From assembly GCF_003019035.1 (NCBI RefSeq), contig NZ_CP027448.1: a stretch of 64,000 bases of DNA. One strand, 5' to 3'. This document shows positions 11,155 through 60,228 of this stretch, in pieces. The translations under genes were made by a program, and so were the position numbers. The number at the start of each line of letters is the position of its first letter. Position 1 is the stretch's first letter. The DNA comes from Escherichia coli (lineage in GTDB: Bacteria; Pseudomonadota; Gammaproteobacteria; Enterobacterales; Enterobacteriaceae). The notes under the pieces were generated by a model. That model did not search any database, was not told the origin of the DNA, and saw only the letters and a program-made list of their open reading frames with translations.

Positions 11155-11382
11155 ATGGAAACCACCGTATTTCTCAGCAACCGCAGCCAGGCGGTCAGAC
11201 TGCCAAAAGCGGTTGCATTGCCGGAAAACGTAAAACGCGTTGAAGTGATTGCTGTCGGACGAACCCGAATCATTACGCCTGCCGGAGAGACATGGGACGA
11301 ATGGTTCGACGGAAACAGTGTCAGCGCTGATTTTATGGATAACAGGGAACAGCCTGGTATGCAGGAAAGGGAGTCATTCTGA
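11155..11382 (+). CDS. vapB: VapB/VagC-type antitoxin (AbrB/SpoVT-like)
   Basis: 75-aa ORF immediately upstream of and overlapping a PIN-domain ORF; typical vagCD arrangement. Confidence 0.75.
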   Translation: METTVFLSNRSQAVRLPKAVALPENVKRVEVIAVGRTRIITPAGETWDEWFDGNSVSADFMDNREQPGMQERESF

Positions 11383-11780
11383 TGCTGAAGTTTATGCTCA
11401 ATACCAACATCTGCATTTTTACGATAAAGAACAAACCCGCCAGTGTCAGGGAACGTTTTAACCTGAACCAGGGGAGAATGTGCATCAGTTCGGTCACTCT
11501 GATGGAGCTGATATATGGTGCAGAAAAAAGCCAGATGCCTGAACGTAATCTCGCTGTGATCGAGGGATTTGTTTCCCGCATTGACGTTCTGGATTACGAC
11601 GCTGCTGCTGCCACACACACCGGCCAGATAAGAGCAGAACTTGCCCGTCAGGGACGCCCTGTCGGGCCATTTGATCAAATGATCGCAGGTCATGCCCGCA
11701 GTCGGGGACTGATTATTGTGACTAATAACACCCGGGAATTTGAACGTGTGGGCGGCCTGAGAATTGAAGACTGGAGTTGA
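11382..11780 (+). CDS. vapC: VapC/VagD PIN-domain toxin
   Basis: 132-aa ORF with PIN-like pattern (MLNTNICIF..., ...LIIVTNNTREFERV), start overlaps the antitoxin stop. Confidence 0.8.
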   Translation: MLKFMLNTNICIFTIKNKPASVRERFNLNQGRMCISSVTLMELIYGAEKSQMPERNLAVIEGFVSRIDVLDYDAAAATHTGQIRAELARQGRPVGPFDQMIAGHARSRGLIIVTNNTREFERVGGLRIEDWS

Positions 11781-39492: not shown

Positions 39493-39514
39493 CCTGCTTT
39501 CTCCTCTCTCTGGT

Positions 39515-40142
39515 TTTCAGCCCCCATCATCTTTTGAGTTTCGGGAGCCGCGGTTTTGACGTTTTGCGGGGACCTGCCTTTTGTTCCCTCCGGTATTCAC
39601 CATCACCTTTTTGAGAACCTTCGCCGCAAGGGGCATCACTGCCACGGACGGAAACGACTGTCCGGGGGCAGACCGCAAAAGTTTTTGCCTGCTTTTGAGC
39701 AAAAAGTTTTGCGGGATGTACATTTCACCCCTGGACTGGCGGAGACGGTTGTGGCTGTATCAGCCCCCGGCGACAGGGGCTTAAACAGGTGAATGGCACC
39801 GGACAGAACAACGGGCAGGGACCCGCCGCAACGACGTGAAGCGCGGTTTGCGAAACGGCGTTGCCCCTTACATCCCGGCGGCCTTTTGCCGGGATGCCGG
39901 GAGCGCAGGCCACGGCGCGACAGAGGCGGCGCGACCGGAACGGTCGCTGCAAGCCCGGGGTTTTCACGCATCGGACCGTAGCGACAGCCCGAAACCGCGC
40001 CAGCGGGTTCGGCGGAGACTGGCAGGTGCGCCAGCAGCTGCCTGTCGGAGTCGGGCCTGACGACCGGATGCCGCCAAGCAGCCGGGAGCCGAAGGTGCGC
40101 CCGGCAGATAGGACAACACTGCAGTAGTCAGAATCAGAGCAG
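39515..40142 (-). repeat. Frpo/ssi-like structured repeat, copy 1
   Basis: About 620-bp GC-rich block shared with 44936..45565 and 48265..48880, each directly upstream of a minus-strand gene set. Confidence 0.7.
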
Positions 40143-40413
40143 AAAGAAAAAGAGAATAATCACAGGGAAGGTGATGTGATTTCTGACAGGCCATAACCAG
40201 AGAAGGCGGGGGAAAAGAACGGGCGCCGCAGGCGCGCGTTCATCCCCGTTCCTGAAGGGAAACGACCTTCCTGAAGTCAGGTTGTTCATGCCCGTACAAC
40301 ATCAGCAAGGAGAAAGGGGCTACCGGCGAACCAGCAGCCCCTTTATAAAGGCGCTTCAGTAGTCAGACCAGCATCAGTCCTGAAAAGGCGGGCCTGCGCC
40401 CGCCTCCAGGTTG

Positions 40414-40572
40414 CTACTTACCGGATTCGTAAGCCATGAAAGCCGCCACCTCCCTGTGTCCGTCTCTGTAACGAATCTCGCACAGCGATTTTCGTGTCAG
40501 ATAAGTGAATATCAACAGTGTGAGACACACGATCAACACACACCAGACAAGGGAACTTCGTGGTAGTTTCAT
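40414..40572 (-). CDS. hok: Hok-family membrane toxin
   Basis: Manual minus-strand translation gives [52 protein letters not shown]. Confidence 0.9.
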
Positions 40573-40630
40573 GGCCTTCTTCTCCTTGCGCAAAGCGCGG
40601 TAAGAGGCTATCCTGATGTGGACTAGACAT
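40418..40630 (-). CDS. mok: Mok (modulation of killing) overlapping reading frame
   Basis: 70-aa ORF overlapping hok in another frame, the canonical hok/mok arrangement. Confidence 0.65.
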
Positions 40631-40670
40631 AGGGATGCCTCGTGGTGGTTAATGAAAATTAACTTACTAC
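40600..40670 (+). ncRNA. sok: Sok-like antisense RNA (approximate)
   Basis: Inferred from hok/sok architecture, antisense to the mok start region; boundaries not resolved. Confidence 0.3.
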
Positions 40671-40851
40671 GGGGCTATCTTCTTTCTGCCACACAACACG
40701 GCAACAAACCACCTTCACGTCATGAGGCAGAAAGCCTCAAGCGCCGGGCACATCATAGCCCATATACCTGCACGCTGACCACACTCACTTTCCCTGAAAA
40801 TAATCCGCTCATTCAGACCGTTCACGGGAAATCCGTGTGATTGTTGCCGCA

Positions 40852-41571
40852 TCACGCTGCCTCCCGGAGTTTGTTCGGCACCATCCACCGCTCCATCTCA
40901 CGGACAGCGTGACCGGCCTCTCTTGCTGCAAGACTGGCTTCCGCAATAACCTGCCAGAACGGCATATCCTGCCACTGCCAGCGTTCCATTCCGGCCAGTG
41001 ACGGAAAACGCTCGCCCCACTGCCAGAACAGGGTTTCCAGGTCATGCTCTGCCACCCGGTCACTCCAGCGTGCATGCCAGCTTCCGACTGTTTCCGGCGA
41101 ATGGAATGCCAGTTCGATTTCAGCCTGAGCGACCAGCGCCTGGTACGCACGGGCTTTCTGCTCTGCCTCCCTCGCCTGCTGGCGGCTGTACTTCTGCATG
41201 ACCAGCGCGGATTTATGGCGACTGCGTTCCCTGACACGAAACCGCACCGACGGGAACAAGCGCTCTGCTGCATCACCGGGAAGGGGAAGGAGGCAGACCT
41301 CGCCCTGTGTTTCAATCAGCACATCGATGGCATACAGCCACTGAAGACGGTTGCCGTGCAGTTCTTCTGCGGTCAGGGACGGCATGAAAAATCGCAGGTC
41401 AGACAGCGATATCCTGCGGCTTCCGTTCAGACAGCGGAAAAACGCCCCCGCATACGGATATTCAGCCAGCGTGTTACCCTGATGGCGGCGTTTTTCGGTC
41501 TCCGCCACCGCCCGCCATACGGCCTGTTGCTCTGTGCTGAGGGGAACCAGTGCCTGTGAACGTGCGCTCAT
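40852..41571 (-). CDS. psiA: PsiA
   Basis: 239-aa ORF directly downstream of psiB, as in F-like leading regions. Confidence 0.85.
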
Positions 41572-44079: not shown

Positions 44080-45565
<1,486 letters not shown>

Positions 45566-55251: not shown

Positions 55252-55301
55252 CCAGATTATGTGGAATTGCAAGTAACGTTGTAGTGCTGATGAGGAAAAT
55301 T

Positions 55302-57530
55302 TTATCTGACTACAATATTGATATCGTTTTCCGCAACAATCAGCATCACGGCAGGTAAACCCTCCACACGCATTTTCTGGTGTAATTTTTTGATTAAATT
55401 ATCATCTTCATTACTGGCTTTTGCGGAAAAGCCTTGTGGATGGGAGTGCCATTCGCCAACATAATCGACAACACGAGCGGTCAACTGGTGAACCCGTTCT
55501 AATGCTTCTTGTTGTCCCGCTTCTCCCCGGACAAAGGAGGCTGGAGAGGATTTACTGTCGATAGGTTCAGGGAGCACGTCAACCAGAATAATCGTTTTGT
55601 TCTTAAAATCTGTTATGCCAACAATTGCACCTCCTGTTTCATTAGGCAGTGCCTGTAAGCGGGTGTGCTGCAATTTTTGCGCTAAGCCCTGGTCATATTT
55701 AACAACCCATTCGCCAGAAATTATAGATACCACGGAATAGAGTTCAATTTCATGTGCATCCATCGCGCCTGATATTTCATCAGATACCCAGATACACAAT
55801 CGAGCATTTCCTTTGAGTGCAGTCTGGCGAAGTTGGCGTGAGAGGATACCGGCATGAACATGAATACATTCACTGGACATACGTACAGAAATATCCCGAC
55901 ATCCACCACCGACCCAACGATCGCCATAATTGTGCTGTAGGTGAGTACTTCCCCACTCACTGCTCAAAATTGCCCGATAGTATTGCCCCTCAATTGCATC
56001 AATTCGGCATTGTCTGTCTACATCCTCCATTAACATCACGCTAGACTGACCCGATGGAGTCAGAAACAGGCTAACTATTCTGGGTATATCATCTTTTAAC
56101 ACTAGAGTCCTCGGCACCTCAAAGGTGGTACTGACATCCACAACTAAGTCTGCCTCATTCATTGCCTTAGCAATATCATCATCGTCATCAAGAATACTTT
56201 TATGGATCGCCTGAGGGAGGGGCTCATGCGGATAAATAGATTTGGCAATATGCTGAATAATATGGGGTTTTGAGACTCCAATATGACAATCAAACCCAAT
56301 ATGGCGAGACAAATTATGTGGAAGAAGCCGATCTGGATCAATAAAAGTCCATGTCCCCCACCCCATTCGAATCCAAATATCAGCCAATGTACTACCAAGA
56401 GCGCCAACTCCAGCTAAAATACCTCGAAAAGCTGCACTCTCTGAATCAACAGCAGATATGTCTCTCGCATGTGTGGCCTTCATAGCCGAACGTATTTCAA
56501 CTGGTAAAAGCGGTAATTGTCGCCACTTGGTACTAATTGATCCGCCAAGAAGCCGTACGCGATGCTGTACTCCTCGCTCATTTTTTGGCGCCAGCATATC
56601 TAGTGCAGTGGCAAGTTCACCGAGTGAACTTTGCACAACATAGCCCATCACATCCGTACGTTCTGTTTCTCCGTTTCTTAGACGGGGGATCCAAAGCAGG
56701 ATAAGTAAGCCTTCTCCTTTACCAGACGTTGGGCGGATACCATCACTTGGTATTGCTTCATAAACAGCGTCAGTTAGTGGTTTTAGGAGCTCACTTCCCC
56801 ATTCATTAAGTTGTTCTTCTAATTTTCCCAGATTATCCGGGTATGTAGCCACCGTAGAAACATCGACAGGAGGAACAGCAATAGTTAATAAGCGAAATGG
56901 CTTAACGCTTGAGGTATCTTGTTCTGGTACAGCCCTTAAAATAATCGGTCGCCCCTCACTGACCATCTGGAGACTGAGCTTATTGTCAGTCGCGTGATGA
57001 TAATCGGGGTAATTGGCTGGCAAAATGAGCTGATAGGGACTCAAATAAAAAAGTTGCTCAAGTGGCTGATCTTCTCGATGTAGATGCAGTTCGGCCGATT
57101 CTCTAAGCCACCAAAAAATGCGCTCAAGGAATCTCTCGGGGGTCCAACTGCGCTCAACTGCGCTCCAGGAGGCCTCATATAGGCAAAGAATTCGTGGTGA
57201 GCCAGGTTCTCCAGCATGCTGGTGAGAAAGAACAGGGAAATCTTTCCGCAATGCATGAACCAAGATAGGTATGCTTGATTTGGGATTGACCTCAATAGCC
57301 AATCGTTCTTTACGACGAATACGGGCTTGATTACCAGAAGCCACAGTCCCATCAGCAGCATCAATGATTAGATATTCCGAGCGGTTATCATTTATTTCAG
57401 AAAATCGTAATTCTCTGACTGTGACGTAAGGATGATTCTCGCATGCTTTAAGCAGCGAAATCGTTTGTGGATAAAGGCTATCGCGCCCCGATGAATCGAG
57501 GCGCTCACCCAATTCGAAATATTCGATCAT
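55302..57530 (-). CDS. Fused E2-like / E1-like (ThiF/MoeB) / JAB-MPN peptidase protein
   Basis: 742-aa ORF: N-terminal H...C pattern (HQHAGEPGSPRILCLY, UBC-like); central Rossmann GILAGVGALGSTLADIWIRMGWGTWTFIDPDRLLPHNLSRH (E1 signature); C-terminal JAMM-like EWHSHPQGFSAKASNEDD. Confidence 0.75.
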   Translation of the reverse strand: MIEYFELGERLDSSGRDSLYPQTISLLKACENHPYVTVRELRFSEINDNRSEYLIIDAADGTVASGNQARIRRKERLAIEVNPKSSIPILVHALRKDFPVLSHQHAGEPGSPRILCLYEASWSAVERSWTPERFLERIFWWLRESAELHLHREDQPLEQLFYLSPYQLILPANYPDYHHATDNKLSLQMVSEGRPIILRAVPEQDTSSVKPFRLLTIAVPPVDVSTVATYPDNLGKLEEQLNEWGSELLKPLTDAVYEAIPSDGIRPTSGKGEGLLILLWIPRLRNGETERTDVMGYVVQSSLGELATALDMLAPKNERGVQHRVRLLGGSISTKWRQLPLLPVEIRSAMKATHARDISAVDSESAAFRGILAGVGALGSTLADIWIRMGWGTWTFIDPDRLLPHNLSRHIGFDCHIGVSKPHIIQHIAKSIYPHEPLPQAIHKSILDDDDDIAKAMNEADLVVDVSTTFEVPRTLVLKDDIPRIVSLFLTPSGQSSVMLMEDVDRQCRIDAIEGQYYRAILSSEWGSTHLQHNYGDRWVGGGCRDISVRMSSECIHVHAGILSRQLRQTALKGNARLCIWVSDEISGAMDAHEIELYSVVSIISGEWVVKYDQGLAQKLQHTRLQALPNETGGAIVGITDFKNKTIILVDVLPEPIDSKSSPASFVRGEAGQQEALERVHQLTARVVDYVGEWHSHPQGFSAKASNEDDNLIKKLHQKMRVEGLPAVMLIVAENDINIVVR

Positions 57531-58714
57531 TGGTTTGATACACCTGCCCTAGGAGCGGCGGCCGTAGCAGCACTTACCGCAGCTGAAACAGCACCAACAA
57601 TAGCGGGTATTAACTTCCCGTCTCCAGCCACTTCAAATTCAAGGAACGCTGTATCTTTAAGATCCCCCGTACAGCTAAACCAACCATCAACACTGTCCAG
57701 AATATCCTCATACTCACGCTTAGCCCGGATGCACGGTGGATCATAATCATCATCAAGTATCTGATTGCTACTCGATACAATTGTTGCCCCGGAACGAGCC
57801 TGACCTAAAGCATTACGGGCCGCATCACAAACTTCAGCATTCTCCCCCCATTGTGACCAGCTATCATAGGAAAGTGAATGCCATGAACAATGATGCGGTG
57901 TGAGGAGAAGATCATATTCTAGTGCCTCAGCATTGCTTTTGTAACGATCCCATAATCGCTCCCAGATGAGAACTTCTGCGTCTCCACCTAATAGAAAGTG
58001 CATAGGATTACGGGAATATGCAGAGGGCAGTATTTTCATGTTCATGATGATACTGGATTCGTTTTTAGAAAGAGCTTCTTCCAAATATTCATCATCTTCA
58101 TGTGGTGCGGGCGCCAGAAGCTGTGCGGAGAACACTTCTGAAATTTGCCCGTCAATTCTGGTGAATGTATCTCCAGCTTTGATAAGAATGGCACTCAGAT
58201 CATCTGTTTTGCCATTAATATCTTCACCCATGATAAGGATTCGATTACCGCTAGATGCATAACCATGTTCCCGCCAGTATTTTACTCGGCGCCGTGCTTC
58301 TGTATTAAATGCCTGAGCATCTTCGCAAAGTGTGTGACTTTTGGAACGACGCCGAAAAATCAATGGTGATGACCACAATTCTCGAATAATGATACGCTTT
58401 TCTGAACGTTTCACATCGTCATCTGGATAATCTTCAGGACGGCCCAGCCAGAAATGTTTACGCAGGCCACCGCAATGATCCTGATCGGGATGACTGAGCA
58501 TAAAAACATCAATAAAGGGACGATCTTTTTCATCATACTTCAATCTGCTACGTAATGCCGAGGCAACATCAGGTGTGTCATCATTGGGGTTATCAGCAGC
58601 AGAGCGAATATGTACATCAATCAGAATGGATGTGCCCCGGGTGTCGGCCAAACGTACCAGTGTCATATCACCGTTGCCGACTTGGAAAAAAGTAATTTTG
58701 GCTGCCATCGACAT
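57527..58714 (-). CDS. Metallo-beta-lactamase-fold protein
   Basis: 395-aa ORF with HPDQDHCGG (HxHxDH metal site); stop overlaps the downstream start (ATGA). Confidence 0.8.
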   Translation of the reverse strand: MSMAAKITFFQVGNGDMTLVRLADTRGTSILIDVHIRSAADNPNDDTPDVASALRSRLKYDEKDRPFIDVFMLSHPDQDHCGGLRKHFWLGRPEDYPDDDVKRSEKRIIIRELWSSPLIFRRRSKSHTLCEDAQAFNTEARRRVKYWREHGYASSGNRILIMGEDINGKTDDLSAILIKAGDTFTRIDGQISEVFSAQLLAPAPHEDDEYLEEALSKNESSIIMNMKILPSAYSRNPMHFLLGGDAEVLIWERLWDRYKSNAEALEYDLLLTPHHCSWHSLSYDSWSQWGENAEVCDAARNALGQARSGATIVSSSNQILDDDYDPPCIRAKREYEDILDSVDGWFSCTGDLKDTAFLEFEVAGDGKLIPAIVGAVSAAVSAATAAAPRAGVSNQ

Positions 58715-58767
58715 CTCCTTTAGGGATACGAAAGATTGAGGTTAAGAGCATCTATTGCTAAGATACA

Positions 58768-58796
58768 TCTAGTAATTATACTAGTCTAGTAATTAG
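58768..58796. promoter_or_regulatory. Direct repeats in the divergent promoter region; candidate operator
   Basis: tctagtaatta at 58768..58778 and 58785..58795, in the 128-bp gap between divergent operons. Confidence 0.35.
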
Positions 58797-58842
58797 ACGT
58801 ATATTTTGGACTTAAATTGTAAGTACAGGAAATTATTGATAA

Positions 58843-59697
58843 ATGAGTGATAAAATGGTGAGAACTGGTCATTGGAGCCAAGAAAGACGGCTTGAATTCA
58901 TCGATTTTCGCCTACTGTGGGAAGGTCGGCTTAACCGTGCAGATCTCACGACATTTTTCAGAATTTCAGTTCCGCAAGCCTCATTAGATTTGGCAAAATA
59001 TCAAGAAGTTGCGCCAAACAACATGGTGTATGATCGAACTCAGAAGGCTTACATTACGACTCCTGATTTCAAACCTGTTTTTACAAGCTTTGACAGTAAT
59101 CATTACCTGAATGAACTACTTGGGCGAGAAAATGAAATAGTGGATCCTGATGATAGTTTCATTGGGTGGGTACCCCCGGTAGCCAGCCTTCCTCTCCCTG
59201 CCAGGAAAGTACAACCTGAAATATTGATTGATTTAATTCGAGCCATGCAAAGAAAACAGGCTTTGGTTGTTGATTATCGCTCAATGACTAATGAACCAGC
59301 AATTCGTACGCTATACCCAACAGCATTTGCACATGATGGGCATCGGTGGCATGTTCGTGCTTATTGTTTTAAGTCTACAATGTTTAAAGATTTTGTTCTT
59401 GGTAGGTTTTTTAAAATCGTTGAATTTGTTTCCCCACCGACATCAATTCCACAAGATGTGGACTGGAATACATTTATTGACGTGGTAATAGGTCCAAACC
59501 CTAACTACGATATGAATAAACGGCTATCTATTGAACATGATTATCAAATGGTAAAAGGAGAAGCAAAAATCCACATACGTAAAGCGCAATTATATTATCT
59601 TAATCGTCGATTAAATTTGGATGTAAATAGCGATGGTTCAATAGATGACAAACAGCAGATCATCATGCTCAGAATAGACGAGTCTAAAACCTATTAA
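58843..59697 (+). CDS. wHTH-WYL regulator (BrxR/CapW-like)
   Basis: 284-aa ORF with N-terminal HTH-like region and WYL-like segment LVVDYRSMTNEPAIRTLYPTAFAHDGHRWHVRAYCFKSTMFKDFVLGRF. Confidence 0.65.
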   Translation: MSDKMVRTGHWSQERRLEFIDFRLLWEGRLNRADLTTFFRISVPQASLDLAKYQEVAPNNMVYDRTQKAYITTPDFKPVFTSFDSNHYLNELLGRENEIVDPDDSFIGWVPPVASLPLPARKVQPEILIDLIRAMQRKQALVVDYRSMTNEPAIRTLYPTAFAHDGHRWHVRAYCFKSTMFKDFVLGRFFKIVEFVSPPTSIPQDVDWNTFIDVVIGPNPNYDMNKRLSIEHDYQMVKGEAKIHIRKAQLYYLNRRLNLDVNSDGSIDDKQQIIMLRIDESKTY

Positions 59698-59709
59698 GGG
59701 AATATTTAT

Positions 59710-60228
59710 ATGAATGCGAATGATGTTAACAAACGGAATAAAGAATGGATGATTGTAATCATTATTATCTATCTTTTTATTTTGTTATGTATAGCAACAT
59801 ACGCTATTGGGGCTATGTCTCTAGGTTGGTTACCAACACCTTACGCACCATTAAGGGTGCCACTGATGTGCGGAGCAATTGCCTATATAGGTGGTTGTTT
59901 ATATTGTTTTCGTGCAATTTACCTCAATAAATGTATTAGAAAACAATGGGATCCAGATTGGCATGTATGGTATTTCATTCGCCCACTGACCAGTACAATC
60001 GCAGGTGCTATCAGTTATTTATTCCTTAAGGCGGGGTTGTTAGTTTTGGAGTCTAGTTCCAATGTAGGAGCTAGTGAAATGGGTTTCTTTGCGCTGGCAT
60101 TTATTGCTGGTTTTAACGTCGATAAATTTGTCGCAAAAATCGAGGAAGTTGCAAAGGCTGTCTGGGGTATTGAAAAAACTCGAAGCTCGACTAATAATGA
60201 TGCGAAAAATTCGGAAAAAAAAGAATAG
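59710..60228 (+). CDS. Small multi-pass membrane protein (about 4 TM helices)
   Basis: 172-aa hydrophobic ORF 13 bp downstream of the regulator gene. Confidence 0.6.
   Translation: MNANDVNKRNKEWMIVIIIIYLFILLCIATYAIGAMSLGWLPTPYAPLRVPLMCGAIAYIGGCLYCFRAIYLNKCIRKQWDPDWHVWYFIRPLTSTIAGAISYLFLKAGLLVLESSSNVGASEMGFFALAFIAGFNVDKFVAKIEEVAKAVWGIEKTRSSTNNDAKNSEKKE

Follow-up and report, generated by a model that had tools for sequence, protein, structure and literature searches.

Sequence evidence for an intact R1-type hok/mok/sok cassette in the leading region of an IncF conjugative plasmid of Escherichia coli

Introduction

The locus described here raises the question of whether a short stretch of plasmid DNA that encodes a small Hok-type toxin also carries the remaining parts of a post-segregational killing system, and, if it does, to which of the known systems it belongs and what it would do for its plasmid. 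The hok/sok system is the founding example of type I toxin–antitoxin systems. The locus lies in a 64 000 nt stretch of Escherichia coli DNA (contig NZ_CP027448.1 of assembly GCF_003019035.1), the whole of which we refer to as the window, and a preliminary description made from the letters alone had called it a complete hok/mok/sok locus at 40380–40680. On the sequence comparisons set out below, we put the probability at about 97 % that the locus is an intact R1-type hok/mok/sok (parB) type I toxin–antitoxin cassette, the same system as flm of plasmid F. Coordinates of all features are collected in Table 1.

Table 1. Features of the hok/mok/sok locus and its surroundings (window coordinates; + numbers in brackets are positions in the hok mRNA)
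Feature	Position	Strand	Basis or remark
Complete locus	about 40314–40781	−	Promoter through terminator-like hairpin
hok promoter	40781–40752	−	−35 TGGTCA (40781–40776), 18-nt spacer, −10 TATGAT (40757–40752)
Full-length hok mRNA, about 398 nt	40745–40348	−	+1 = G at 40745
Mature (3'-processed) hok mRNA	40745–40386 (+1..+360)	−	R1 primers (PMC1635323)
tac, core GGCGCUU	40745–40739 (+1..+7)	−	Pairs with fbi in minimum-energy fold
ucb / anti-SD box	40679–40672 (about +67..+74)	−	Includes A70 G71 C72, matching R1
mok Shine–Dalgarno (SD) GAGG	40638–40641 (+105..+108)	−	G105, A106 match R1 (PMC9841398)
mok frame, 70 aa	40630–40418 (ATG 40630, stop ends 40418)	−	ORF list, Pfam
dcb, GGAUAGCCUC	40613–40604 (about +133..+142)	−	GCCUC pairs with GAGGC of mok SD in Rfam consensus
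hok SD AAGGAG	40587–40582	−	Sequence
hok toxin gene, 52 aa	40572–40414 (ATG 40572, stop 40416–40414)	−	ORF list, Pfam
GC hairpin GGCGGGCGCAGGCCCGCC	40405–40388 (+341..+358)	−	Terminal stem of truncated hok mRNA
fbi, core AAGCGCC	40356–40350 (+390..+396)	−	Pairs with tac in minimum-energy fold
Terminator-like hairpin	40346–40314	−	14-bp stem, UUCG loop, then UCUCCUU; directly 3' of fbi
Sok RNA, 64 nt	40621–40684	+	Both ends are exact R1 sok primer matches (PMC1635323)
Sok promoter (candidate)	40586–40614	+	−35 TTGCGC (40586–40591), 17-nt spacer, −10 TATCCT (40609–40614); read by eye
psiA	40852–41571	−	Next gene on hok strand; PsiA E 3.6e-38
Frpo-like direct repeats, 300 nt	39513–39812 and 44936–45235		95 % identical, 5,423 bp apart
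VapB-type antitoxin	11155–11382	+	MazE/AbrB fold, E 2e-5
VapC, PIN-domain	11382–11780	+	E 3e-19

Results

The toxin and mok reading frames

The predicted Hok protein matches the Pfam family HOK_GEF (E=1.2e-21; score 76.5 bits, cut-off 22), and the Mok protein, whose frame overlaps hok out of frame, aligns along its entire length with DUF5431, the Mok family (E=2.6e-41). Disruption of the toxin frame was looked for and the frame is whole; the 52-aa and 70-aa frames named in the preliminary description are both borne out. The mok AUG falls at +116 of the hok mRNA. Besides the frame at 40414–40572, no further Hok/SrnB/PndA-like toxin was found in the window; SrnB and PndA queries match weakly and at a single place, which is the hok locus.

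Automated annotation of this region departs from the reading given here. The RefSeq/PGAP records give Hok (WP_001372321.1) as a protein of 41 aa that starts at an internal GTG (Val12) and occupies 40414–40539 (−). Set against the established 52-aa protein from ATG 40572, the PGAP version is a truncated Hok; in R1, start-codon mutations at +174 abolish toxicity (PMC9841398). On the + strand, a 74-aa ORF (40616–40840) overlaps Sok and, in antisense, the leader and promoter of hok, and a 'hypothetical protein' is annotated at the corresponding place of a related plasmid; this ORF is probably not a real gene.

The hok mRNA, its promoter and its 3' end

The transcription start at 40745 (−) was fixed by the R1 hokF primer together with a set of R1 anchor nucleotides (Le Rhun et al., 2022, PMC9841398), 19 of 19 of which match when +1 is set there. 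These anchors include the TATGAT −10 box, G4/C5/T6 of tac, A70/G71/C72 of ucb, G105/A106 of the mok Shine–Dalgarno sequence and G345/C358 of the 3' stem. Four of four R1 primers for Sok and for the mature hok mRNA (Faridani et al., 2006, PMC1635323) also match exactly. The comparison with R1 that had been proposed at the outset thus came out in agreement throughout, the identity to R1 being judged from 19 anchor bases and 76 primer bases, together with the near-identity to R100, instead of from an alignment of the whole locus. The hok promoter was picked up by a consensus scan, and T−12, A−11 and T−7 of its TATGAT match the mutationally defined −10 box of R1 hok (PMC9841398); the R100 promoter is identical, and that of F differs at one position in the interval compared.

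The mature mRNA ends in the GC-rich inverted repeat ggcgggcctgcgcccgcc at 40388–40405, two bases of which (G345 and C358) match R1; the R1 hokR primer sets the end of the mature mRNA at +360. In R1, the truncated mRNA is lost when G345 or C358 is mutated (PMC9841398), and the stem has been described as a roadblock for 3' exonucleases (PMC1635323). We read this hairpin as the stem that closes the processed mRNA and as the exonuclease roadblock. We also considered it as an intrinsic terminator and rejected that reading, because it lies approximately 40 nt inside the full-length transcript and is a documented processing roadblock. Since trimming shortens the hok mRNA by 39 nt at its 3' end (PMC1635323) and the processed end lies at +360, we infer, rather than map, a full-length 3' end for this copy at about +398/399, which corresponds to about 40348 in the window.

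Directly beyond fbi lies a second hairpin, with a calculated folding energy of −25.1 kcal/mol, in which an A-to-G change in R100 and F keeps the pair as U–G. In our own reading this is likely to be the transcription terminator of hok. An Rfam L25-leader match at 40319–40338 scored 19.3 bits, below the gathering score, and was set aside as a chance match to this hairpin.

These assignments modify the preliminary description in two respects. The hok/mok/sok locus is real, but the interval 40380–40680 given for the complete locus is too narrow, since it omits the hok promoter (40781–40752), the first 65 nt of the leader with tac (40745–40681) and the last 4 nt of Sok (to 40684) on one side, and fbi (40356–40350) and the terminator-like hairpin (40346–40314) on the other. 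Likewise, the GC hairpin that had been placed at the 3' end of the toxin mRNA does stand there in the processed mRNA (+341..+358), but not in the primary transcript of approximately 398 nt.

Predicted folding of the hok mRNA

Two alternative sets of pairings, with their energetics, were computed for this locus. In the minimum-energy fold of the 398-nt RNA (−175.9 kcal/mol, z = −8.25), +1..+7 is paired to +390..+396 and ucb sequesters the mok Shine–Dalgarno sequence; G4, C5 and T6 of tac are functionally defined in R1 (PMC9841398). The alternative is an open leader, represented by the consensus structure of the Rfam model RF01794, which consists of a tac–ucb stem, a Sok-target hairpin and an SDmok–dcb stem; ucb, which pairs with the mok Shine–Dalgarno sequence in the closed fold, pairs with tac in the consensus structure. 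The covariance match of this model to the leader at 40746–40570 scores 88.9 bits (E=7.5e-20; gathering score 59). An 18-nt insertion relative to the model is present in the window.

The penalty for forcing the published open pairing (G4–C72, C5–G71 and U6–A70) is 12.2 kcal/mol in the 398-nt RNA but falls to 0.2 kcal/mol when the RNA is cut to 360 nt; in that 360-nt RNA, adding the SDmok–dcb pairing to the forced open form costs 2.0 kcal/mol. This narrowing of the energy gap from 12.2 to 0.2 kcal/mol suggests that removal of fbi would bring a translatable, Sok-accessible fold within reach, as in the R1 model. The unconstrained minimum-energy fold of the 360-nt RNA keeps the closed ucb/SD hairpin, the open form being isoenergetic and not favoured.

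The pairing of tac with fbi, which the preliminary description had singled out for checking, is present in the minimum-energy fold and is accompanied by compensatory changes in three divergent loci, obtained by scanning viral contigs for Hok relatives (here L007, L008 and L009). When the 5' third of the region is searched for complements in its 3' third, the longest is formed by these two segments, at an equivalent position, in six of six loci: they read GGCGCUU/AAGCGCC in the window, R100 and F, GGGUGCUUG/CAAGCACCC in L007 and L008, and GGGUGCUC/GAGCACCC in L009. The sequences of tac and fbi therefore change in a compensatory way across loci, in a sample that is small (six loci, with three divergent ones too few for statistics). 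Both segments were located by direct search for complementary segments; an automatic MAFFT alignment had put the 5' ends of the divergent loci in the wrong place.

The Sok antisense RNA and its promoter

Sok, with the sequence GACUAGACAUAGGG...CUAUCUUCUU (3' end CUUCUU), has the published length of 64 nt and is complementary to +62..+125 of the hok mRNA, a segment that spans the mok Shine–Dalgarno sequence (+105) and the mok AUG (+116). It is predicted to fold into an unpaired 5' tail of approximately 11–12 nt, a long hairpin and a U-rich tail (z = −5.6). A sok promoter, also to be checked according to the preliminary description, can be read as TTGCGC-17-TATCCT, the −10 box of which ends 6 nt upstream of the Sok 5' end, but only 7 of the 12 positions agree with the sigma-70 consensus, and the consensus scan passed over it. 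In the literature the Sok promoter is called strong. The −10 box lies inside dcb, in agreement with the location in dcb of a Sok-promoter mutation (PMC9841398), and the layout is kept as TTGCCT-17-TAACCT in L007 and L008, where the spacing and the TTGC and TA..CT cores are conserved. The promoter therefore appears to be present, as a candidate rather than as an independently proven element.

The Rfam family RF01794 carries the name 'sok antitoxin', yet it matches the sense strand of the hok mRNA (40746–40570, −), from one base before +1 to the hok AUG. Because the experimentally defined Sok occupies 40621–40684 (+), the Rfam annotation puts Sok on the wrong strand and makes it approximately 2.7 times too long.

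Position on the plasmid

The plasmid is an IncF conjugative one, and the cassette occupies its leading region, where the order is psiB–psiA–hok/sok–Frpo1–...–oriT. Read along the − strand from approximately 64 kb, integrase genes, a ThiF/metallohydrolase pair and umuD are followed by antirestriction and methylase genes and then by ssb, a parB-like gene, psiB, psiA and hok/sok; beyond the cassette lie a DUF932 gene, an SLT transglycosylase gene, oriT, traM, the tra genes to traI and traX, finO and IncFII repA. The region at about 55300–60200 shows homology to pRHB01-C21_2, with genes for a ThiF-family adenylyltransferase, a metallohydrolase and then a WYL-domain protein, and with tyrosine recombinase/integrase genes beyond; the arrangement resembles a defence or accessory island beside umuD and dinI.

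A type II vapBC module, present at 11155–11780, is inserted between traI and traD in the orientation opposite to the tra operon, and the earlier statement that hok/sok is a second addiction system in addition to vapBC is upheld.

The Frpo-like repeats bracket ssb...psiB–psiA–hok; in F they align with the stretches that precede ygeA and ssb, the homology to F running approximately 150 nt past the 300-nt core. In F these two sequences are the Frpo1 and Frpo2 single-stranded-DNA promoters (PMC9849209). The + strand of the repeat is predicted to form one long imperfect single-stranded-DNA hairpin (z = −6.0), and the hok locus has psiA on one side and the Frpo1-like promoter on the other, an arrangement shared with flm in F. 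A 68-aa ORF lies within each Frpo-like repeat of a related plasmid, where PGAP labels it 'single-stranded DNA-binding protein'. The ORF at 39517–39723 (−) in the window, with its counterpart in the second repeat at about 44.9–45.2 kb, has no Pfam match, and gene prediction has probably mistaken a structured non-coding element for a coding sequence here.

Distribution of the locus

The 501-bp stretch at 40300–40800 is 100 % identical in all of the best plasmid matches listed, and the identity is ≥99 % in at least 1,472 plasmid records. The search matched at least 5,000 records; among those listed, most are of conjugative IncF plasmids of Escherichia, Klebsiella, Salmonella and Shigella, and the annotation under the matched stretch reads 'type I toxin-antitoxin system Hok family toxin'.

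Discussion

Every defining element of hok/mok/sok, with a candidate for the Sok promoter among them, is present and intact in the window and is identical to the experimentally characterised R1 locus wherever the two could be compared. Taken together, the Pfam, Rfam and nucleotide matches lie far outside what chance would produce. The element is an already known and very widespread one, and what is described here is an ordinary copy in its canonical place.

The mechanism that such a locus would follow comes from the literature on R1 and was checked here as far as sequence allows. A weak promoter (TGGTCA-18-TATGAT) would give rise to a stable hok mRNA of approximately 398 nt, in which tac is paired with fbi and ucb hides the mok Shine–Dalgarno sequence, so that neither ribosomes nor Sok could bind. 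Slow exonucleolytic trimming from the 3' end would take off fbi and halt at the GC hairpin (+341..+358), upon which the 5' end would refold into the tac–ucb and SDmok–dcb pairings and expose the mok start region; translation of hok would be coupled to that of mok. As long as the cell keeps the plasmid, the short-lived 64-nt Sok RNA would be abundant and would bind through its 11-nt single-stranded 5' tail, blocking translation of mok and hence of hok, and RNase III would cleave the duplex. In plasmid-free segregants, Sok would decay first, and the stored hok mRNA would mature and be translated into the 52-aa membrane toxin that kills the cell. By analogy with that literature, transcription, processing, RNase III cleavage and killing would all be expected of the present copy, and its sequence identity to R1 parB suggests that it contributes to post-segregational killing and plasmid stabilization.

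One alternative, which we regard as unlikely although it is the strongest of those considered, retains the same mechanism but supposes a different selective unit and a main selected role that is local: the cassette would guard ssb–psiB–psiA against deletion by recombination between the Frpo repeats, act during establishment in the recipient, or both. The 95 %-identical repeats at 39513–39812 and 44936–45235, homologous to Frpo1 and Frpo2 of F, do flank ssb...psiA–hok; Couturier et al. (2023, PMC9849209) proposed exactly such safeguarding for flmAB; and hok is co-oriented with the leading genes, so that the transferred strand is the hok template. However, cloned R1 parB stabilizes unrelated replicons (literature cited in PMC1635323 and PMC11541004), so that killing at the level of the whole plasmid suffices to explain the locus. 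The two roles are compatible, and the present data do not discriminate between them.

An extension of the same idea, to which we likewise give little credence, is that hok serves as a checkpoint of establishment and integrity and not only as a killer upon segregational loss. Since the locus has the orientation of the leading genes, with the Frpo2-like single-stranded-DNA promoter upstream of it, hok mRNA could be made from the incoming single strand upon entry into the recipient, before a template for Sok exists. If that were so, the slowly maturing, end-paired hok mRNA would be a timer that kills recipients in which complementary-strand synthesis has failed, and cells in which the Frpo1–Frpo2 interval is deleted would die too. 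Safeguarding of the interval, and the listing of flmC downstream of Frpo2, are already to be found for F in Couturier et al. (2023), who also noted that flm lies between the two Frpo repeats and shares the orientation of the transferred strand; an account of early conjugative gene expression (PMC12672017) mentions neither hok nor flm.

It is very unlikely that the cassette is a silent relic which no longer aids plasmid maintenance, as is the case for most chromosomal hok loci of E. coli K-12. The activity we ascribe to this copy is read from its sequence, and the presence of vapBC on the same plasmid means that selection on hok/sok could be relaxed. Against this, both frames, the hok promoter and the candidate Sok promoter, tac, ucb, dcb, fbi and the 3' stem are intact and equal to functional R1 at every tested position, the locus bears no IS insertion or rearrangement, and conservation is 100 % in the records listed and at least 99 % in no fewer than 1,472 plasmid records. 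Least probable of all, to the point of being almost certainly wrong, is that the antitoxin RNA is the minus-strand element, co-oriented with hok, that Rfam labels 'sok antitoxin' (40746–40570): RF01794 does match the minus strand, but a match running from one base before hok +1 to the hok AUG is simply the leader of the hok mRNA, and the R1 Sok used experimentally (GACUAGACAUAGGG...CUUCUU) corresponds to + strand 40621–40684 (PMC1635323).

Taking the locus, then, as an intact R1-type cassette, its copy on this plasmid is indistinguishable from that of R1/R100 and so carries little weight as a discovery. The presence of at least two addiction modules on one plasmid, hok/sok and vapBC, bears on plasmid persistence and on plasmid-curing strategies. 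The practical use of the analysis lies in annotation, for which it supplies exact coordinates of RNA elements that automated pipelines misplace; the errors at this locus comprise the wrong strand for Sok (Rfam), a Hok cut to 41 aa, and spurious ORFs over Sok and over the Frpo repeats.

Comparison with known systems places the copy closely. From R1 hok/sok (parB) the window shows no difference at any position checked. R100/NR1 has the same Hok coding sequence, Sok RNA, promoters, tac, ucb, dcb and fbi boxes and 3' stem, and the same position beside psiA; the mRNA in the window differs from that of R100 by two substitutions (+44 and +368) and by a 2-nt indel in the 3' untranslated region just 5' of fbi. 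The flmA/flmB/flmC locus of F shares the architecture and the genomic position (psiA–flm–Frpo1), and its tac, fbi, 3' hairpin and hok −10 box are identical to those in the window; the gene order psiB–psiA–hok–...–traM is the same in F, R100 and the window. The hok coding sequence of F differs at 4 of 159 positions, and the toxin by one residue (H39Y). In the antisense RNA the divergence from F is greater, with 19 of 64 Sok positions differing (14 substitutions and 5 deleted bases) as against none in the comparison with R100, and on these counts the copy is assigned to the R1/R100 subtype, an antisense RNA of the flmB type being absent. The three divergent loci, which lie on phage-like contigs, resemble the window in having a Hok/Gef toxin of 60–69 % identity (67–69 % for L007 and L008), a conserved leader, the same layout of the candidate antisense promoter and a compensated tac/fbi pair. 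These loci and the wider Hok/Gef family (chromosomal hokA–E, srnB and pnd) differ from the window in the primary sequence of the leader, of the tac/fbi boxes and of the 3' untranslated region.
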